Shown piece after piece: positions 5,929 through 54,495 of a DNA stretch of 64,000 nucleotides. Below the pieces are notes generated by a model, which searched no databases, had not been told where the DNA came from, and worked only from the letters and a program-made list of their open reading frames with translations. Made by a program: the position numbers and the translations under genes. Origin of the DNA: Neodothiora populina (Eukaryota); NCBI RefSeq assembly GCF_041146345.1, contig NW_027191405.1:1426001-1490000 (forward strand), given 5' to 3'. Position 1 is the stretch's first letter; the number at the start of each line of letters is the position of its first letter.

Positions 5929-8759
5929 CTAATACTCAAAGTCGTCATCCACAGACGGCCCCTTGTTCTTCGTCACGCTCTCCTGCCTCTTGTACATGTC
6001 CGCAACCTGTCGTGCAGTGGTGGCGTCGTCCGGCTTCTTGTCCTCACGGTCGCGAATATACCTGGGAAATCTGAGACTGACACCTCGGTGACTGGCATCA
6101 CCCAGCACATCCTTGGCGGCCACGTATCGAGGACTCAGCGTCAGATCTGCCGTCTTGACTTCCCACACCAACCTGGGCTCGAACCAGACATCAGGTTGGT
6201 CTTTGTTTCCAGAAGAGTGCGAGTAAAAAGGTTTGGGACGGTCTATAACAAGATCCTTGAGTTTGTCGTAAAGTGCCTGGAGCACTTCTTCACTGAAGCC
6301 CGTGCCGATATTGCAGACAGTTTCATATGTCTGTGACGACGAGTTGTAACACGCAAGCAAGAAAGCGCCATAGACACTCGTGCGTTTACCGCGGCCGTAG
6401 TATGCTCCCAGTACCACTAGGTCAAGAGAGTCACCGGCGCCGGCGAGGTAGTCCTTCTTGACCTTGAGCCAATTCTGTGATCGACGGGACGGCTCGTAGT
6501 GTGACTCGACACCATCGAGCATCTTGACCATCAGGCCTTCGCACGATGCCTTGACGGAATCTTCGAGCAATACTTGGATTTCTTCAAGCTGATCCGTGTT
6601 GCCGTATTTGGCAAAGGCAAACTCTCCTTCGACTTCGGTAAAGGCAGAATAGAGAGCCTCTCTTCGTTCCCGGAATGACTTGTTGACCAATGCTTCGCCG
6701 TTGAGATACAAAATGTCAAAGGCATAGACACAGACCTTGACCTTGACGTCTTCAACCTTGACATCCTTTCGCTTACGCGTCATGAGCTGTTGGAAGGGCA
6801 GGACCTTCTTCTCGACCACGTCCCACGCCACCGTCTCGCAATCAAGCACAAAGGACTGCGTGCCCTCCTTGATCCAGTCTGGAAGTTTAGCTAGGATATC
6901 AGGATACTTCTTCGAAAGATCTTCCGAGTTGCGAGAGAAGATGTTTGAGATGCCTTTGCTCGTCTTGCCTGCCAGAGGGGCAGGAGTTGCCATAGCCTCG
7001 GCCGCACCATGAGCGACAAAGTGGATCTGAGCGCGCTCACCATCGTATTTGTACTCGCAAGTAAAGTCTTTGCCCTCGAAGCGATCGAGAACTTCGGTGA
7101 TGGACTTTGTCGGTTTGGCCAACATGGGCTTGAGCGGCACTCCTGGTTGCAGGTTGCAGACCTGGCGAAGATTGAAGACGCCGACATCGAGCAGTGCCGG
7201 GATAATAACCTCGTAGCTGGGGAGCTCGTTGTAGACTGCCTTGAGTATCCCCTCGCCCTTTGCTAATTGATCTGTCGACGGCACTTTACCCTTTCTAGCA
7301 ATATCATGGGAAGTCATGGCTTGCGCGAGAGCGACCAACACTGTCTTGTCCGCCAGTCCCAATCGCATCTTGCCTTCCAGAGTACGAACAATAAATTTGG
7401 CTTCACTAGAGCCACCTTTGTTGAGTGTGATGTCGACGCCCTGACCTTTGGGTAGGTTGGCATCGGCAGCAGAGAGCAGCTTGTGAATACCAGAAACCTT
7501 GCGGCCCTGACCACCCTGACCTTCAATCTTGGCAATAGCAAGAAGCTGCTCATGCACACCACGGACGGTGAGCGGCTTGGGCTTGAACATTGTCGGCTGG
7601 CTTCCCTTGCTCTTTGCCGCCACGAGACCCAGATCGCCGATTTTCTGTTGATCTTCTTTGATGATTTTGAGAGAGCGACCGGTGGAGTCGCCAATGGCTT
7701 TCATGATCAGACTCTCGCCTATACCGAGTTCTATGCCCGCATAGTCGGCGGCAAGTTTTCCCAACATGAGAAGCACAGTAGGTAGCAGATCATCGGGTGT
7801 AAGCCTTGCCACTTGACGCAGGAACAGGGAACAGTGAGCAGAGATTTCCAGTCGCTTTGGCGTCATTTCGATCTTGGAGAAGGTGGTGCATAAAGCTGCA
7901 TAGGGGACAGGATCGCCGGCTTTCCAGTCTGGGTATGGGTCTCTGGTGCCTTCGGCCGTCAGGGTGGACTGCAGCTTCTCTCGCGCCTTTTTTGCCTTTT
8001 CCGGCTCTTCCTCTTCGTCAGTCTCTTCACCCTCGGCTTCTGACTGCGGGTCGCTTTCAGATGCATTTCCCATGGCAACATCGTCGTCTTTGTCGATGAC
8101 GGCAGGCGCTGGAGGTTTGGGCTCGGCCTTGGCTTTTGTCGTGGATTTTGACGGGGTCGGGGTATGCGGCGGCAAATCTGGCTCGTCCTTTATAGCAGCG
8201 GTGGGTGTTTCGTGATCTTCGTCATTGTCCTCGGTCTCGACCACCCTTACTCCCTTCTTCGGATGTGGCGTTGCTGGCTTCTTGCGTTGTCTTTTGGTGG
8301 GTGGTTCGTCGTCAGAGGCGTCCTGGCTCATATCCTGGTCGTTGTCATCTGCGGCTCGCTTCTTGGGACTTTTGCCGTCTACGAAGTTGACTTTCTTCGT
8401 TGCAGCAGGACCAGTGTCTTCATCTGTGCTGTCTTCTGCCTTGATCGCGTCTTTTCTTGTTTCAGCATCTTCATTCTTCGCGGCAAGGTCGTGATCTTCG
8501 TCTTCTGTAGGTTGTTGTTGTTGAACAGCATCGACCGCGCCGACCTGATTTGTCTCACGCTTTGGTTTCTTTGCCGTGGTCCCAAACGACAGCTTCGCCT
8601 GTTGAGGGGCAGGCTTAGACCCATCAGGTTTGCCGAAGAACTTTCTGATGGTGCATGATCAGCGAGGGTATGGAAGTGTGGACGGGGGAGCAGGGCGCAC
8701 CCTATCGTGGTCTGGGAAGGCCTGACATACCCAAGAGTGGACTGCTGTTTGGGCGGCAT
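5929..8759 (-). CDS. CDC9: ATP-dependent DNA ligase I; short exon 1 from 8759, intron ending 8645, exon 2 8644-5929; possible longer isoform from ATG 8900
   Basis: Active-site motif EYKYDGERAQ, plus EGLMVK, WLKVKKDY and SLRFPRY. Splicing gives an N-terminal PIP box (Q..LGKFF) in frame with ORF 5929..8331. Confidence 0.97.
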
Positions 8760-9046: not shown

Positions 9047-9386
9047 TGGAAGGAAGGTACCTACTTAAGCCAAGCTGAGGTAGACAGGAGTCGATGACGT
9101 CGAGCCAGAGATGGAAAGCAGAAGCGAGATTCCCCGAGTCCCCGAGGATTGTCTCGTCTCGTCATGCTTAATGGCAGACATCGGCTTTAAACCAACTTGG
9201 TTAAACAACTTCTGGAATCATAGTAAAAACACCCACGATACCGCCACTTCTCACAACACCAGCAGCATACGATAATCTACATACCTCAATCTGGCAGCCT
9301 ACTTCTGGAAAACTGCCAGTCCTTCCTCGTCGCCGTCCTCCTCCCTGTCTGCTGCACCATTACCACAACCGCAACCACACCCGACA

Positions 9387-10075
9387 ATGTCATTACCGGA
9401 ACCCACGCCGCAGCCCGGCCTGACACCACAATTCTGCTTCAATCAGACCGCACTACGAGGTAAACCTCGCCTCTTCCGTCCCCGCACTCATCCCTCTCTC
9501 ACCCTCTCCCATCCAGACCTCATCTAACCACGACCACCCCAGACTTCCTGCGCCTCTCCCGCAGCGCAGTGGACGACACCATCTCGCAAAACCTCAACGC
9601 CCTCCTAACCCCCGGCACATCCTCATCCTTCGACCCAACCTCGACATCCACGCGCACGACCCCACCGCACCCAACATTCGCCACGCGGCGCACGATCCCG
9701 CGCCCCGCCTGCGACGACTTCCAATCCCGCATCCTTTTTCCGTCCTGGCAAGCCCGCAGCGACGTGCTGAACTACTGCGCCGGGGTAGCCACGTCGCCTG
9801 ACCCCGGCGACCCGGATCTGCTGCTGCGAGAAGTGGAGGATGCCAAGGCGAGAGAGAGGGTTGTCGACGAGAGGCTGGATCCCTACAGCGCGAGGTATTT
9901 CCCGCGGGCGCCGCGCACCGAGGCTCTGGCGGCGTTGATACGGAATGAGAGGATGGTGGAGACGATTGTCAGGGGCAGGACGTGGGGATTGGTCACTGAG
10001 CGGTGTGAGAGCGGGGGGTCGGATCCGGAGAAGGCGCTCGATGAGTGGCGGCGGCTACGGAGTGGTGGTTCGTAG
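9387..10075 (+). CDS. MIX23: Mix23/Cid2-family mitochondrial intermembrane-space protein; exons 9387-9459 and 9543-10075
   Basis: LTPQFCFNQTALR|DFLRLSRSAVDDTISQNLN, LFPSWQARSDVLNYC, ERLDPYSAR and RTWGLVTERC. Intron GTAAAC..CTAAC..CAG preserves frame. Confidence 0.88.
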
Positions 10076-10395
10076 ATGGGGAGGTTTGGTCTAAAGGGAT
10101 GGGATTCACTCCACTTTGCTTTCGAGCATGGCGCAGAGGCGTATTTGTAGCATTGTAGAAACAAAAGCTCCCTTCGCTCTCTTTCACATGTCGCATATTG
10201 TACATACAGCATTATATCTAATCAGACATGGCTGCACCAGCAGCAGGAAACCCCACGCAGTGGCCGCCGGAGGCATACATGTGGGCTGTTGTGGTTGCAT
10301 ATGCATCTCAGATGCAGCAAGAGAAGAAGCAAGTGCAAGCACGTATATTCGTAATTTGAATACGACAGACAAGCTAATTAGTGAGGAAAAGAGCC

Positions 10396-10937
10396 AAAAA
10401 GAAAAATGCCCCCTGAATCCCATGCGATCGTCGCCGACCACACCAGCAGCTTATCAGAGCGCCGTATGACTCCCAGTACTTCCTATGGGCGACACCTCCA
10501 AACGCCGGGTCCAGTGCAAGGTCTGCTCGGACAGACGGGACCGCTGATTGCCGACTTTGGTGCTCAGATGCGCAAGTTCCCGTGATGATGGGGGTCCACG
10601 TATGAGAAGGTGGCTCATAACCGGCACCGGCCACAATGTTTTCGTCGATGCCCGACGTCATCCCCCCGTATTAAGCAGAGGCTTTGGTCACAGACGCTGC
10701 ATGTGTGGCCCCGTCGACACAGAGGTTTGAAAACCGCCCGTCTCCGCAACTACTATGCCAAGAAGCAGGGTTACCTGTAACCCTTTCGTAGACCCTTTTG
10801 GGGCGAAACTGAGAATCGAACCGGGGACCCAGCTGCGGTTTCGAACCGAATCACCGGTAGTCCACCGCGCAGCCCTTCACCATGCAGTAGAGGTACAGTA
10901 GCTAGCTGCTCATTCTACCACAAGACCACTGAGCCCC
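10396..10937 (-). ncRNA. Putative Pol III-type structured ncRNA (or tRNA-derived SINE-like element) with a tRNA-like 5' domain
   Basis: Minus strand: TATATAAA (10978-10971), then GGGGCTCAG-TGGTCTTGTGG (A-box-like), B-box-like GGTTCGAAACC (10847-10837) and GGTTCGATTC (10822-10813), GCCCC closing the head at 10800, many hairpins, and TTTTTCTTTTT (10406-10396). Confidence 0.55.
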
Positions 10938-13431
10938 AGCTCGGGATACCGGAAGGGCCTCTCGGGAGGGTTTATATAGCTTAAGTTGCAAGTGATGTTC
11001 CCCACTAGAAAGACACTCTGTTCGTATCATTGTTTTTCTTGCTGCCACCCCTTGATAGTGTGATCCATCCACCACCGAGCGTGACCATGCCATCGCAGTC
11101 TTTTCAGATCAGTGGACCTGATGTGCTCTCTCTTGCAGAAAATGATATGAAGTAAAGGATGATCAGGAGATATATAAGGAGAATCGCTGCTGTCGACGCG
11201 ACTCACCAGGCTGCACCCATCCGTCTGACTTACTAGTACTTTTACTGCTCTGCCACATCAATCATGTCCAAAAGGAATGTTACGTCGTGAGCCTTCGTAC
11301 GCACTCATTCTTGCTCACGTAGGACTGACAACTAGCGAGCTCTGCAAACCCCATACGTCCTGGTCACCATAGAGAATGAAGGTAGCAACGCTGGACTCAC
11401 CTGCTACTCAATCTCTTGTCGCATCGGCATGTAGGACAGCGCTATAGTGGGCTTAAGCTGCTGTCGTACAGTCGAAAGGTGCCAACAACCTCGCCAGGGG
11501 AAAGCGACAAGTCTGGGGCGGAAGCCTCCTTGTAGCATGCAGCTTTTCGCACACCCTGTTCGTACATGGCATTATGCTGAGGAGCAACTCGTGTATGGAA
11601 TCGGATGCTGCCTCGAGGCAGTAAAAGCTGGACCAGAGGTAGTCGTAGCGCATTATCGTAAGATCGGGTCTCTCGCAAAGACGCATCGCGCGTAAGAGGT
11701 GCCGCTGCTGGCGAGTGCTGAAGCGTGGAGCCCCGATCCATGACCCTTGATGGAGTCACTTCTTTCTCTCCATTCATGCTTTCGGATGGATCCTTCGGCA
11801 GTGATTATGCCCCAGAGGATCGCACGCAGGAAAGAGATGGAAGATCAGTAATACTAGAAGTCCTTTGATTTCGGAATATGGTATGCGGTACTACCATGGC
11901 AAAAGGGCTGTGTCAGTATGCAATGAGAAGCTCAGAAGCGAAGAGCGGATCCCTCTATTGGCGACTGAGATGTGCTTCGACGCGCGAGCGGAAAGCAGTA
12001 AGATGACCAATACTCGACAACAGCCGTCGATTTACACCCTCATACACTTCACAAAGGTGACACACTATCATCAAAGGATAAAATCTGCAAGGCACTTCGG
12101 TTGCGAGCTGTAGATGAGCGTACACATCATAGTGAGAGGGCTGACCGAGAGCATAGGAGGGGTAATATGGACGAGGTGCGGTCGAGTTTGACTCTGGGCA
12201 CAGGCTTTCGTTCCTGCCTAAGCGAGGGACAGATTGTATCCGCGGAACCGAGTCAGATACCTTATGCAGTATAGTACAGTACAGTATCTCTTCTAGACTC
12301 AGAACTTTCCATTAATCATGCTATTTCGAAAAGCATGTCTAGGCGAAAAATTATGGATGATGACAAGCCTCTCATAAGTAAATGAGGATATTCTGTCGCG
12401 GGTTGAAGAACGGCATATTTGTAGCAAGACTCGAGCGCAAAGCTTACAAGGCAGAATGACAAGCAATATGATGCCCGGGAAAGAAATTTCGCCGCTTAAG
12501 CTGCAGCTTTAATGATTTTCCTCCAAAAGCTTTGTCTATCATTAACGTCGATGCTGAACTAAAAAAAAAGAAAAGATAATTGATGTACACGTCCGCCATA
12601 TCGACATATTTTATGATACCTTAACGACCTTGTATTGAGTGCATTATTAGGCGCCGTTATAAGTAACGCTGAGGCATTAGAGCGATTAAGAGACGAAGGC
12701 GAAAGCGGCATAGTCAAAGGTCTGTAGCGCGCGCCGAGGGGTGGTGTCAAGAGAGGGGATTTAGGCCGGATCATTTAGGGTATAATTGGTAAGGCGGTGT
12801 GGGAATGGAAGTTCTCGAGGCTTTGGATGGATGAGGCAGATCAAATTTGACCAATGCGTTGTTTTGATCACTTCGTCAACTGCCAGATCTAGGAGGTTGT
12901 ATGGAAGAATGCGAAAGATTCTAACCCTGATGCGCAAGCATACTCCGTACGAAACAGAATCCCGAATATTGAAGAAGGCCCATAAACAAAATGAACAAGA
13001 GTGTAATCTCTAACTTCTCTTTCGGTCTCCAATTTCCGTCTTCTTCGAGTCGTGCCCGTGGATATTGAGCGAATTCATATCAAACAATAAGACATTGACT
13101 CGCGCTCCTCTGAGAACAACAGTTGGGCTAGTGAGGTGGTTCTTCCCTCACTTTACTTACATACTTGAACATGCTCATTATACGGGCGTCTGGGACCTTG
13201 CTTTAGATAGGGGGGCCCATTCTTGTTCCATGCATCTCATGCCTAGATTGAAATTTATCATAGGATGATTGAAATTGGTATTCGTTTATTGGGGGTGTTT
13301 GTACATGTTTACCTTCGTCCTTTCCCTTTTGTTCCTCTCTCTTTCTCTCTCCTTTCCTGTCCCGAGTCTCGGGCCGCAATTCATCTTCCTCGTCACAGCA
13401 TAGTGTCGATAGATTCGCAGCACCCAGTCTT

Positions 13432-14343
13432 CTACCAGATCCCGAGCCACTTCCTAGGCGGCGGTCTCCTCTCGCCCGCCACAGCCCTAGCAGCATCCTG
13501 ACTATCCACGCCCTCAGCGCCAACAACCTCAGCACCGACCGGCCCAGCAGGCACGGCACCACCGAACGCACCCGCAAAATCCGGCCCACCCTCCTTCATT
13601 CCCGGCCCCATGACCTCGTCATCACTCTTGACACTCCAACCGCCCAGACCTTCACCCTCATCCAAGCCGTGCGCCTTTCTGTACTCGCTCCTCTTGCGCA
13701 CGTCTTCGACTTTGTGGCGTCTGTGCTCGGCCGTCTGCATCGAGACGTATTCCGTGTGCAGCTTGTAGACGCGGAAGTACTGCGTGATAAACGCAAAAGG
13801 ATGCGAGAAGAAGAAGTTGTTGGGCGGCAGCTGGTCGGCGTAGGGCGTCGAGGTCGTGAAATTTGTGAGGAATGTGAAGAAGGCGAGAGAGGTCAGGATG
13901 GACTGTTTGTGTTGGAGAAATCAGTCTTGAAATTCGGAAAAACGGAAGAAAGGGAGAAAAATTACCATGGTGATCCAAACGTGAATACTCTTGTTCGTCA
14001 GGAACCAATGCAGAAAAGTGCCCTCGGGCGGCATCATATGCGGATATCTCCTCTTCTCGCTCTGCTGCTTTTCATTTTCGCTGCGTCCGTACGTCGGCAG
14101 AGCGGCGGCGCTCGCACCCCGTCTTCTCGAGGTCGGCAGACGAGATCCGTGGGACGGAGGGTTGAACTTTGCTGGTTTCTCGAGCACAATGGGCTTGCGC
14201 GGAGGTTTTATCGATGATGAAGAGGCGTGTCGGATCAGAGTGCTTATGAGAGGGTTGTGTTGGAGTCGTTGTTGCGCTTGGAGGTGTTGGATGCTTCGAG
14301 GGGCTATACCTAGAGGCAGTCGCTGGGAGAGTCGAGATGCCAT
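13432..14343 (-). CDS. Hypothetical protein, probably mitochondrial and membrane-bound; exons 14343-13966 and 13902-13432
   Basis: Arg/Ser-rich acid-free N-terminus (MASRLSQRLPLGIAPR), KPIVLEKPAKFNPPSHGSRL and YPHMMPPEGTFLHWFLT followed by a TM segment. Intron GTAATT(13965)..CAG(13903) joins in frame to the ORF ending RKWLGIW. Confidence 0.8.
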
Positions 14344-14717
14344 GACTATCAAAGGCGAGAGCGTATAGATCGTCTGTCTAGATGGAGAATCAAAGATCAC
14401 AGAAACATCTACCGGCAATTGTCGAGCTTCGGAGGTGAAGCGGCGGAGATGGAGCCCGCACCGCCTCTTGGCATGCCAAGAGTCATGGTATACTATTCGC
14501 ATATGCGGTCGTTTTCCGTCACATGCGGTTCATGTCACTATGTCTGATCTAAGCTGCTGCATGCATAGCAGCCCTACTATTCTGCTGCTTGATATATCTG
14601 TAGATACTCGGGCCAAATCACCAAGTGTGCACGAGTCATTGCTGTCCTCGACACAGGTCAAGTCTGTCCAAGAAACAAACCGGCAGCAAACAAGACAGCA
14701 GACAAGACAGCAAACTA

Positions 14718-15859
14718 CTAATTCTGCTTCTTCAATGACCCGTTCTGTCCACTACGTTTACGAATAACCGAAGGCAGCGATGTAAACATGCTAGGCCAGC
14801 TCAGCTCGAATTCATCTTGCTTTCCGTTCAGGCAGTGACGGAGCCAGACGCCCCACACAATGTAAAAGTAGGCTCCAGTGCCGGTCATGAGATGCCTGTT
14901 CATCTTGTCAGTATGTCTTTGCAAAGGCACTCATCTCTCTCTTGTCAGACTCACCACCAGCCATGGCCTTCAAGCAAAATGCCCCAAGGCAGACCAACTT
15001 CTCTCCTCCATGCTCTCAATGTCGAGCAAAAGACATTGTCAAGCCCCCAGATGGCGAATCCGCCCAAGAAAATGGACAGTCCACATGCTATCATGAGCCA
15101 CATTGTCTTGAGGATCTTCCTGTCTCTGGCATCCTGTCTTTGCTGCTCCAAATCCTGCTCTTGTGTGTTCACAGCTTTCTTCGAAGACCTTTGCGCTTCT
15201 TCTCTTGCCTTGATGTTGGGTCGCAGGCTGATCTCCATGATGTACATGGATCGGAAGAGCACAATGGCGGTGAGGAGCGCGTACATGTTCTGGTGGAAAA
15301 CTGGGTCACCCAGGTAGTGGTAGTATCCAGTGATGAAAATGCACAGCGCAACTAGGAAAACAGCAAGCGCGACCTTGAAAGGTGTCTTTTGCTTGTGTGA
15401 GAATGTCGCGTAGAACATAAGACATGTCGTGTAAATCATGGACAGCTCATCAACAAGTTGCATGGGGTCTGTCTGCGTGTGAGTCATGCCGTCTTTGGTC
15501 GACATCTCTTGAGCATCGGCAACATACATTTCAAGGTAGAATGGAACAGGAAACTGCCCGTTCCCACAATCAAATACCCGATGAAGGTGACCAGAAAGAT
15601 TTGGTCATGTCCTTGTTGGACACAGTTCGAGATGCCTCTGAAGGCAAGCGCCACGAATAGCAGGTTGGTCAAGGTGTTGACAATTTCGGCAGAGTAGACG
15701 GTGGCATAGTAATCCTGAACGAGTATATCAGATATCGTCAATGATACATTCAACGAAAAACTAACTCACCTCTTCACACCAGTTCAGTGTCGAGGTAACA
15801 GGGCTCCAGTATCCATCCTGAGCAGGAGGATAGGGAAATGATGGTAACCAAGACTGCAT
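14718..15859 (-). CDS. Alkaline (phyto)ceramidase, Ypc1/Ydc1/ACER3 family; 4 exons
   Basis: GYWSPVTSTLNWCEE|DY..AEIVNTLTN, GSFLFHSTLK, MQLVDELSMIY and LEGHGWW|HLMTG carry the CREST-family Zn ligands. Three GT-AG introns lie near 15769, 15526 and 14954. Confidence 0.93.
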
Positions 15860-53048: not shown

Positions 53049-54495
53049 GTTGTCGACAGCGTACAGAAGTCCATGAATTGGCTCGCATTCAACTTGCGCT
53101 CCTTGGAGCTTCTTTCATTCTACACGTGTACAAAAAGGATCAGGCGGTCTATACTTGCATCAATTGATGCAAGCCGCCATTCACTCCTGTCCAAAAAGCT
53201 CCACTGTTGCTAGACATTTTCACCCTGGTTTTCTTTCATTCTCATGATACCCCCCTTATCGGAGCCATGTCTTGATTTATACCTTTTCATTTCCACACCT
53301 GACATTTTCACATTTTACTGCTTCTGATGATGGATTTTTTGCGCCGAGGGGCGCCTATCGAAGCCTTTGAGCGAGGAGCGGAACCGGAAACGAGACATCT
53401 TACTTGTCCTTGTTTCTTCAGTCAAGGGTACATTAACCTTGCCCTGCACACTGCAATGGGTCATGGCAACTTGGATTCGCTCTCAACATTGTTTCGGCAA
53501 CCTGCATTGACTTGCACCAAGGACACGTTACACGTACGAAGAGGCTCCGTCAGCTCATGGATCACAATGCACGAAGCAACAAGGGATAAGATGAGGGCGC
53601 TCGACAAGCTGATACGAAGGAACATGGAGTGAAGAACGGGAGAGAAATGCAAGGAGCCAAGACCCAAGGCATCGATGAGTGCGCCATCATCTCTCAATGC
53701 CACTTCCAGACTAAACTTTTTTTTGGAGGAATAGGAGCGCAACTCAGGGTTTTTTTCAGTGTTCTCCAGTCGCGCAGGGAGTTTGTTTTGCATCAGACAC
53801 GCGAAGGGAAAGGAAAGCAATGAAGATTTATTTCCAGGCGCATTTCGATATCAATGGATGATACGAAGGAGTCTGCAATGGAACTTGGATGGGAATTGTA
53901 GAACGAGTAAGAGAATTTTCCGAGAACGAAAGACGGCGGACATGTCGAGAAACGCAGCAAATGAGAAGAAGAGCAACGACCCCAAAAAAATCGGAGGTGC
54001 ATGGTAAGTGGTTGGGTGGGGGACATCCAGAGCAAATTAAAGCAAAGCAAAGCGAGGGCGTTTTCTGGTTTTGTTCTTTGTCTTCTGCTCTTGCTTCTTT
54101 TTCTTCTTCAGGCGGACTGTCTTGTGCGATAGTATGAAAAGAAAAGCGGATACGGATTATGGGGGATGGGGGAAATATAGGCCAAGGAGTTTGAATTTCT
54201 TTTCTCTTTTCTTTTTTTTGATATTAGATCTGTACATGGTAAAAAGGTAAAACTTATGTTCCTCTCTCTCCAAACCGACTGGTGAATTGCTCTTGACGGT
54301 TCTTTGGCTCCTGGTCTTCGATATCAGACGGTATCGAGGGCGTGTGGGATCGAGTATTCCATTCAAGATGGAACACTCGACCTCTCATGAGTCAACCGTC
54401 TAGTGGGACTCAAGAGAATGCCTTTTCTTCTTGCTCTTCTCGACGACTCGTTGGTGATTGGCAAGGAAGCTAGATTACGTCTTTTGAATCGCGTA

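Follow-up and report, generated by a model that had tools for sequence, protein, structure and literature searches.

The locus lies within a 64,000-nucleotide stretch of the Neodothiora populina genome (contig NW_027191405.1, positions 1,426,001 to 1,490,000), referred to below as the window. It is bordered on one side by the second exon of a convergent MIX23 gene, which is identical to a Neodothiora populina protein at 177 of 177 residues, and on the other by a coding-like ORF; no recognised gene was found between these two neighbours, across at least 3.3 kb. The original prediction had placed here, on the minus strand, a ~540-nt structured Pol III RNA gene with a tRNA-like head, and a reading of the sequence recovered every motif that it had listed, together with its four hairpins, at the expected minus-strand positions. 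The features of the locus are as follows:

9464-10072, plus strand: MIX23 gene, second exon, convergent neighbour (Pfam PF09774, E 1.3e-48)
10377-10661, minus strand: 95-aa ATG ORF; codon score 0.0, no homolog within the length ranges searched
10396-10406, minus strand: TTTTTCTTTTT (T5CT5), first T5 run after the head, ~540 nt from the inferred start
10407-10796, minus strand: proposed "body"; spacer, no excess structure, no known family
10521-10536, 10601-10619, 10643-10657 and 10768-10783, minus strand: small hairpins (sequence reading)
10730-10733, minus strand: first T4 beyond the head (~205 nt past the inferred start), where Pol III might stop weakly
10800-10826, minus strand: second T-arm-like piece, comprising the B' box, TTTCGCC resembling an acceptor, and an end similar to CCA
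10812-10822, minus strand: B' box GGTTCGATTCT, starting 25 nt after the B-box start
10813-10822, minus strand: second B-box-like motif GGTTCGATTC (sequence reading)
10823-10935, minus strand: tRNA-like module, found by ARAGORN after a 24-26 nt deletion
10837-10847, minus strand: exact B box and T loop, GGTTCGAAACC (sequence reading)
10874-10904, minus strand: anticodon loop plus intron-like insert of 24-26 nt, 31 nt between the anticodon-stem halves
10918-10928, minus strand: A-box-like TGGTCTTGTGG
10926-10936, minus strand: best A box, GGGCTCAGTGG
from 10937, minus strand: GGGGCTCAG (sequence reading)
10971-10978, minus strand: TATA element TATATAAA, ~28 nt 5' of the start inferred from the A box
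13435-13920, minus strand: next coding-like ORF beyond the element

To assess the promoter-like signals of the head, we compared each element with its consensus. The TATA element fits at 8/8 positions, the B box at 11/11, and the B' and A boxes at 10/11 each. The A-box consensus is well established, as is the A expected at position 14 of a tRNA. The best match to the A-box consensus is not the one that had been assigned: TGGTCTTGTGG, which in the ARAGORN register covers tRNA positions 8-18, has two mismatches, including a T at A14, whereas GGGCTCAGTGG departs from TRGCNNAGTGG at a single position. Taken alone, A-box matches are unremarkable (13 with one mismatch in the window vs 23 expected). 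Exact B-box matches number 2 against 0.34 expected, the other one lying within a DNA ligase ORF. TATATAAA occurs twice on the minus strand and once on the plus strand of the 64 kb, and TATAWAW has 7 sites per strand; from these 14 sites in 128 kb, we estimated a ~0.3-0.5% chance that a TATA would be correctly spaced, for a slot of 30-40 nt.

The combination is much rarer than its parts. An A box (at most one mismatch) followed 30-150 nt downstream by an exact B box appeared in 4/300 simulated 64-kb windows, and requiring a further B-like box no more than 60 nt away, or TATA, A box, B box and second B box jointly, left none (0/300). The cluster of promoter-like motifs is non-random. These frequencies, like the deletion scan below, come from criteria set up post hoc with the sequence already known, and very many windows were screened, so that rare chance clusters will arise somewhere. 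With this reservation, the expected order of a fungal Pol III gene (TATA, A box, B box) with a tRNA-like head was upheld, and the sequence supports a Pol III type-2 promoter geometry for the head, namely TATA, then A, B, and B' boxes.

We then asked whether the head derives from a tRNA gene. ARAGORN called no tRNA gene in the intact head, in either default or intron mode at the standard threshold, and in intron mode it found the intact module only at -ps90 or lower. Among 10,507 single-deletion variants of the 171-nt head, five were called as tRNA at the default threshold. The deletion begins at 10903-10900 and spans 24-26 nt in all five, and each yields an identical cloverleaf (10935-10823) whose variable arm is long. 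In control scans, a tRNA call was obtained from none of 150 random 171-nt segments of the window and from one of 100 shuffles. The recovered cloverleaf has an acceptor stem (GGCTCAG/CTGGGTC, two of its pairs being G-U), a weak D arm, an anticodon stem (GCAGC/GCTGC), an 18-nt variable arm, and a T arm (TTCGG-TTCGAAA-CCGCA). The variants are marginal: they pass -ps100, but 0/4 pass -ps102, in a benchmark where 23/24 real tRNAs passed at 105 and 19/24 at 110. The scan supports a probable tRNA origin of the head, with a cloverleaf that is recoverable by one deletion but marginal.

Covariance models did not recognize the intact head. Rfam gave no tRNA match on the intact head, at gathering scores or at E<=10, with either 1.2 kb or 166 nt as query. 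Our own tRNA model, built from 13 of the 24 ARAGORN tRNAs of metagenome loci (class-II tRNAs, 77-78-nt "Leu" calls, and L010 duplicates were left out), aligned 10866-10800 as anticodon arm, T arm, and acceptor, with 9.4 bits and an E of 1.4, a score at chance level and no better than that of sites within coding ORFs.

The module also departs from a functional tRNA at several points. A functional tRNA has U33, a purine at 37 and, if it has an intron, the intron between 37 and 38. No cut that removes the insert yields a canonical anticodon loop, and the anticodon varies with the cut (GAA, AAG, AGG, AGC, or ACT). An intron at 37/38 with the perfect stem GCAGC/GCTGC puts an A at position 33, and in the solution that ARAGORN itself found, the insert lies at 32/33. 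Further defects are the T at position 14, one T-stem mismatch, and one surplus base between the T and acceptor stems. No oligo-T terminator lies shortly 3' of the module, as the first T4 is ~90 nt and the first T5 ~415 nt past its 3' end. We rejected a functional nuclear tRNA gene: the A and B boxes are present, but the cloverleaf call, a canonical anticodon loop, and a nearby terminator are all absent. A double-deletion scan (1,337,422 variants, no control set) gave 35 calls at -ps104 and one at -ps108. The anticodons of these calls disagree (Ala 13, Phe 8, Leu 8, Pro 4, and Ser 2) and name no single ancestral isoacceptor.

The downstream ~390 nt had been described as dense in hairpins. Hairpins are found there, but their density does not exceed chance: the body folds at -141.1 kcal/mol, whereas shuffled versions average -146.2 +/- 5.3 (z +0.96) and match or exceed its stability in 81 of 100 cases, and the four named hairpins are ordinary at the local composition. 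The whole 542-nt unit has a z of +0.41 against shuffles and the 142-nt head a z of -1.39. It is likewise true that no T5 run occurs before TTTTTCTTTTT, but this is uninformative, because a random start runs 530 nt free of T5 with a probability of 0.68 (minus strand) or 0.70 (plus strand); 57% of random minus-strand starts meet no T4 within 200 nt. As the T5 spacing equals chance expectation, the 3' limit at 10396 is arbitrary. Hence, with no excess structure and an oligo-T distance expected by chance, the data do not support a ~540-nt structured Pol III RNA gene.

An Rfam search, as had been suggested with the original prediction, was run and returned no known family. RNase P, RNase MRP, SRP, snRNA, U3, snoRNA, and telomerase RNA gave no Rfam match even at E<=10, and the top match in the region was a "Hairpin ribozyme" on the opposite strand (19.1 bits vs a threshold of 65). 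A telomerase template was discarded, as 10100-13400 holds just 7-8-nt matches to the TTAGGG template. The earlier failure to find signatures of RNase P, MRP, SRP, U-snRNA, U3, or telomerase thus held under both the Rfam and the template search. A single C/D snoRNA candidate (10621/10567) was set aside, as the background alone supplies such candidates just as often (0.12 per 580 nt).

The statement that the region has no credible CDS also withstood Pfam, codon scores, and homolog searches. Of 71 ORFs of at least 35 aa overlapping 10050-13300, MIX23 alone exceeded the Pfam threshold; eight ORFs of 10050-13300 had sub-threshold matches (E 0.015-0.21), and no domain above threshold fell in 10100-13270. 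Codon scores across 10100-13200 ranged from -0.28 to +0.13, a weak measure because the genuine MIX23 exon reaches only 0.017. ORFs 10377-10661 and 11445-11804, both on the minus strand, had no homologs within the length ranges searched. Together, these sequence comparisons support the absence of a credible CDS from the element region.

Searches elsewhere gave no relative of the element. BLAST against a plasmid collection returned no match. A pattern scan of metagenomes for double B boxes yielded 10 loci, all unrelated and discarded: some were tandem repeats, others bacterial-type tRNA-Ser genes matching through anticodon arm and T arm, and one was a tRNA-Val followed by a motif; BLAST of 10100-11300 against them gave just two 24-nt matches (E 0.30). 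One RNA run, in which 5% of the sampled words occurred, produced a 193-nt contig at 9397-9589 and a spurious 37-nt piece, with none on the element. Among the papers listed on SINEs of Aureobasidium and other fungi, on Neodothiora populina itself, and on extra-TFIIIC sites, none appears to describe the element.

We favor, with a probability of about one half, a decayed tRNA-derived relic, in which a tRNA gene copy has degenerated but still carries promoter signals and is followed by ordinary spacer, rather than a structured RNA gene. The relic would be either a tRNA pseudogene or a low-copy SINE-like remnant. Among the alternatives named with the original prediction, a decayed tRNA pseudogene plus chance hairpins appears to fit the data best. 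As in tRNA pseudogenes, the acceptor stem, the canonical TTCGAAA T loop, the variable arm, and the anticodon stem become recognizable after one deletion, the A and B boxes are present, and the score lies at the very edge of tRNA detection. Unlike in tRNA pseudogenes, the TATA and boxes are unusually intact relative to the stems, 10826-10800 holds a second T-arm/acceptor/CCA-like piece, and there is no terminator. In this head, the promoter elements are less degraded than the tRNA stems, a pattern that is not obviously expected of neutral decay and would be expected of selection on promoter function.

The architecture also agrees with that published for a family of fungal SINEs. In the sections of PMC5063351 that describe them, the AfuSINE2 elements of Aspergillus fumigatus measure 140-493 bp, are of low copy number, and have heads with degenerate A and B boxes, none of which folds as a cloverleaf; AfuSINE2-1a carries, 20 bp past its B box, an additional B' box, GGTTCGATTCC. 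Our element resembles those described there in its degenerate head without a cloverleaf, its A and B boxes, a tRNA-unrelated region running to an oligo-T tract, a length of a few hundred bp and, within the window, a low copy number, and its B' box, 25 nt past the B-box start, parallels that of AfuSINE2-1a. Added to the tRNA-derived head with Pol III boxes, which the deletion scan and its controls indicate, these likenesses make it conceivable, although unlikely, that the element belongs, as one copy or as the source gene, to a tRNA-related, AfuSINE2-like SINE family of low copy number, in which a degenerate tRNA head, an unrelated body, and an oligo-T end would be transcribed by Pol III and copied by LINE machinery. 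Unlike AfuSINE2 as presented in those sections, the element was found only once in the 64-kb window by BLAST with words as short as 7 nt (which says little for a low-copy family), and it has no target-site duplication: no direct repeat of at least 8 nt joins 10930-11010 to 10250-10815, and the flanks share one 7-mer vs ~2.5 estimated by chance. Nor does it have a repeat or LINE-like tail, with no A-rich, simple-repeat, or tandem tail in or beside it and a 3' end that is T-rich, not A-rich. Across 3.2 kb around the element, Pfam detected no domain of a reverse transcriptase, a LINE, or any other transposon, and an upstream TATA of its own is not something that a SINE insertion would bring. At ~540 nt, the element exceeds the size range given in the same sections of PMC5063351, and of five head motifs sought in the text of that paper, a comparison by motif, GGTTCGATTC alone was present, two times. 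The hosts differ as well, Neodothiora populina belonging to a different class, the Dothideomycetes.

Two further explanations were weighed. In yeast RPR1 and SNR52, which Pol III transcribes, a tRNA-like leader supplies the promoter, and these genes share with the element the order of TATA, A box, B box, downstream RNA, and oligo-T, with a leader that lacks a terminator. The element might be a real Pol III gene of this style, with the tRNA-like leader serving as internal promoter for a downstream ncRNA and being cut off by tRNA-processing enzymes. The boxes are correctly ordered and spaced and better kept than the tRNA stems, the region has no coding potential, and because no terminator directly follows the module, any Pol III transcript would run on into the body. 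We consider such a gene very doubtful nonetheless, as the body does not exceed shuffled sequence in structure, matches no known ncRNA family at E<=10, has a C/D-box candidate at the background rate, and ends at a terminator positioned as expected by chance; unlike in RPR1 and SNR52, the downstream part has neither an RNase P or snoRNA signature nor excess structure. It also seems rather improbable that the element is neither a Pol III gene nor a retroposon, being instead a Pol II non-coding or orphan transcript, antisense towards MIX23, with incidental boxes, or a TFIIIC landing site (an "extra TFIIIC" boundary). TATATAAA is a canonical Pol II TATA, a 95-codon ATG ORF lies at 10661-10377, and at least 3.3 kb without a recognised gene separates MIX23 from the minus-strand ORF at 13435-13920. 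That 95-codon ORF has a codon score of 0.0 and no homolog in a protein collection that does contain the 177-residue-identical MIX23. Paired B boxes are bound by TFIIIC in yeast, and the exact and near-exact B boxes, 25 nt apart, are candidate TFIIIC sites by sequence. Yeast ETC sites and chromosome-organizing clamps are likewise strong intergenic B boxes without a functional tRNA; unlike at ETC sites, the B boxes here are part of a tRNA-derived module that also includes an A box and a TATA. Free-standing boxes are contradicted by the tRNA fold obtained with one deletion, which argues that the boxes descend from a tRNA gene.

Under the favored reading of a decayed tRNA-derived relic, the head (10935-10800, minus strand) would be a degenerate tRNA gene copy, probably of class II, with a long variable arm and an insert in the anticodon loop. 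It would keep Pol III-type signals (the upstream TATA and the A, B, and extra B' boxes), yet would no longer make a canonical tRNA, and it would lack its own terminator. The ~390 nt after it would be intergenic spacer between convergent MIX23 and the next gene, not an RNA body. If TFIIIC and Pol III still load, read-through may stop weakly at the T4 (~205 nt) or at T5CT5 (~540 nt), yielding not a functional RNA but a by-product without structure and probably of low stability. Retention of the tRNA-like module as a promoter would account for a near-perfect TATA, A, B, and B' beside broken tRNA stems. Pol III might then drive a lineage-specific RNA of ~200-540 nt, its leader cleaved by tRNA-processing enzymes, or the module might form a TFIIIC-bound boundary between convergent genes; we regard such retention as a long shot.

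Two lessons of method follow. "No T5 until X" and hand-picked hairpins are near weightless when bases are distributed as they are here. Conversely, running a tRNA finder over all single-deletion variants can reveal tRNA ancestry that is degraded and interrupted by an insert and that escapes standard tools. If the conservative reading is true, the locus holds an unannotated tRNA-derived relic in a Dothideomycete, which merits annotation as a pseudo-tRNA or repeat and little more. If the element were transcribed and conserved, it would represent a new Pol III non-coding RNA or TFIIIC boundary for filamentous fungi; to our knowledge, very few such genes are known outside yeasts.

By standard tools, the head (the tRNA-like, promoter-bearing part at about 10935-10800 on the minus strand) is not a tRNA. 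ARAGORN at default threshold reported zero tRNAs in the window, also in intron mode, and Rfam at E<=10 gave zero tRNA matches on 10100-11300 and on 10785-10950. A covariance model that we built from 13 class-I tRNAs scored 10866-10800 at 9.4 bits (E 1.4; second of 12 matches), no better than sites within coding ORFs, and in its alignment the anticodon arm falls on the first "B box" and the T arm on the second. This model's best match in the window, 54324-54401 on the minus strand (13.3 bits, E 0.07), has acceptor, D and anticodon arms, lacks a T loop and drew no ARAGORN call; it is probably a chance match.

At 90% of its threshold or less, ARAGORN reported a 113-nt tRNA at 10935-10823 on the minus strand with a 24-nt insert. 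All possible single deletions of 4-100 nt were made in the 171-nt head, and the resulting 10,507 variants were submitted to ARAGORN. The default setting called a tRNA in five, all of which had lost 24-26 nt from 10903-10900 onward and adopted an identical fold, with the following parts.

Parts of the recovered fold (ARAGORN, deletion variants)
GGCTCAG / CTGGGTC, minus strand: acceptor
10909-10905 and 10873-10869, minus strand: anticodon stem
18-nt, minus strand: variable arm
TTCGG-TTCGAAA-CCGCA, minus strand: T arm

The same scan gave calls in 0/150 171-nt segments drawn at random from the window and in 1/100 shuffles of the head. We conclude from this that a tRNA was the ancestor of the head, apparently one of class II whose anticodon loop held an insert. 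The recovered fold is marginal: deletion variants pass at a -ps value (percentage of the default threshold) of 100 and 0/4 pass at 102, compared with 23/24 genuine tRNAs at 105 and 19 at 110. A double-deletion scan, run without a control, yielded 35 calls at -ps104 and one at -ps108, with disagreeing anticodons, and no clearly better ancestor was recovered among its 1,337,422 variants. Several departures from a working tRNA can also be read directly: T occupies position 14; position 33 is A, provided that the insert lies at the canonical 37/38 site; the T stem and acceptor stem are separated by one extra base; the T stem has one mismatch; the D stem is weak; and the ~90 nt past the module's 3' end contain no T run. 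The module is followed by one further piece.

10826-10800, minus strand: second T-arm/acceptor/CCA-like piece

A palindrome, AGCTAGCT (10897-10910), sits exactly at the expected anticodon-loop place of the module and permits an alternative local hairpin, GCAG-CTAGCTA-CTGT.

The original prediction was a ~540-nt structured RNA gene, and the evidence speaks against one. The body (the ~390 nt after the head, 10407-10796, minus strand) folds at -141.1 kcal/mol versus -146.2 +/- 5.3 for shuffles (z +0.96), and 81 of the 100 shuffles equal or outdo it; z is +0.41 for the 542-nt unit and -1.39 for the head alone. A stretch of 530 nt free of T5, proposed as marking the gene's extent, is seen from 68% (minus) or 70% (plus) of random starts in the window, so the proposed terminator defines no gene end. 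The absence of known RNA families was borne out, with no Rfam match in the window at gathering scores and no relevant one on 10100-11300 at E<=10. The single C/D-box-like candidate corresponds to background frequency (0.12 per 580 nt), and telomerase-template matches are only 7-8 nt long.

The element lies among the following features.

5932-8658, minus strand: DNA ligase I, upstream of MIX23
9464-10072, plus strand: MIX23 main exon (Pfam PF09774, E 1.3e-48)
13435-13920, minus strand: coding-like ORF, next after MIX23 (codon score 0.22, no family)
14954-15604, minus strand: ceramidase ORF, next domain found downstream of MIX23

The window belongs to a fungus of the Dothideomycetes. Residues 27 to 203 of the MIX23 exon match, with 177/177 identities, an NCBI protein bearing the name Neodothiora populina, whose N-terminus matches the adjoining frame 9276-9527 (plus strand); MIX23 therefore has one intron. 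By comparison with the database protein, the N-terminal "MSLPEPTPQPGLTPQFCFNQTALR" is in a different frame from the 9464-10072 exon. Given the position of the next coding-like ORF, the element lies in an unusually long gap between convergent genes, of 3.3 kb or more. From MIX23 to the ceramidase ORF, ~4.6 kb (10100-14700) is without a Pfam domain, unusually long for a convergent-gene gap in a compact fungal genome. As originally predicted, the region holds no credible CDS, and the evidence is against its being coding: there is no above-threshold Pfam domain in 10100-13270, codon scores (a weak measure) are near zero, and zero homologs of the 95-codon ORF 10661-10377 or the 120-codon ORF 11445-11804 (minus) were found, in the length ranges searched, in a 5.8-billion-protein collection that includes a protein identical to MIX23 over 177 residues. 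The ~120-aa ORFs at 11445-11804 and 11958-12311 (minus) look non-coding, and ORFs tested at 13273-14529 gave no domain.

The motifs first reported, hairpins and T runs as well as promoter-like boxes, were all recovered at their minus-strand positions. The best A-box consensus match is GGGCTCAGTGG (10936-10926, minus; one mismatch); the A box originally proposed, TGGTCTTGTGG, has two mismatches in our own reading and occupies tRNA positions 8-18 in the ARAGORN register. GGTTCGAAACC (10847-10837, minus) is an exact B box. Exact B boxes number two in the window versus 0.34 expected, the other lying inside the ligase ORF, and A-box-like matches 13 versus 23 expected; singly, the motifs do not exceed chance. 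Their combination does. We simulated the window 300 times with a first-order Markov model. With order and spacing required, A + B turned up in four simulations and A + B + TATA in one, and no simulation had A + B together with a second B-like box. These criteria were fixed post hoc, with the sequence already seen, and very many windows are covered by the scan, so chance has become a weaker explanation without being eliminated. In two metagenome contigs from a double-B-box pattern scan (L003, 1451-1560; L010, same sequence, reverse strand), a tRNA-Val(CAC) is directly followed by a second GGTTCGATTC motif, which recalls the arrangement of the B box and B' box (10822-10812, minus) and is otherwise without similarity to the window.

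This architecture is shared with tRNA-related SINE-like elements of Aspergillus fumigatus, which are described as 140-493 bp long and low in copy number, with degenerate boxes and no cloverleaf fold in their heads; in one family, an additional B' box lies 20 bp past the B box (PMC5063351). A low-copy SINE-like element nevertheless seems unlikely here: the 64-kb window holds no second copy, there is no flanking repeat of at least 8 nt and no tandem or A-rich tail, and the well-placed upstream TATA is not something an insertion carries along. Still fainter is the prospect of a Pol II transcript or of a bare TFIIIC site, and a real leader-driven Pol III RNA gene, with a body that folds no better than its shuffles, is at least as improbable. 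The reading we favor, at roughly 50%, is that a degenerate tRNA-derived module whose promoter layout resembles that of Pol III genes is followed here by ordinary spacer. A single observation keeps the bolder readings alive: preservation is much better in the promoter elements than in the tRNA stems.
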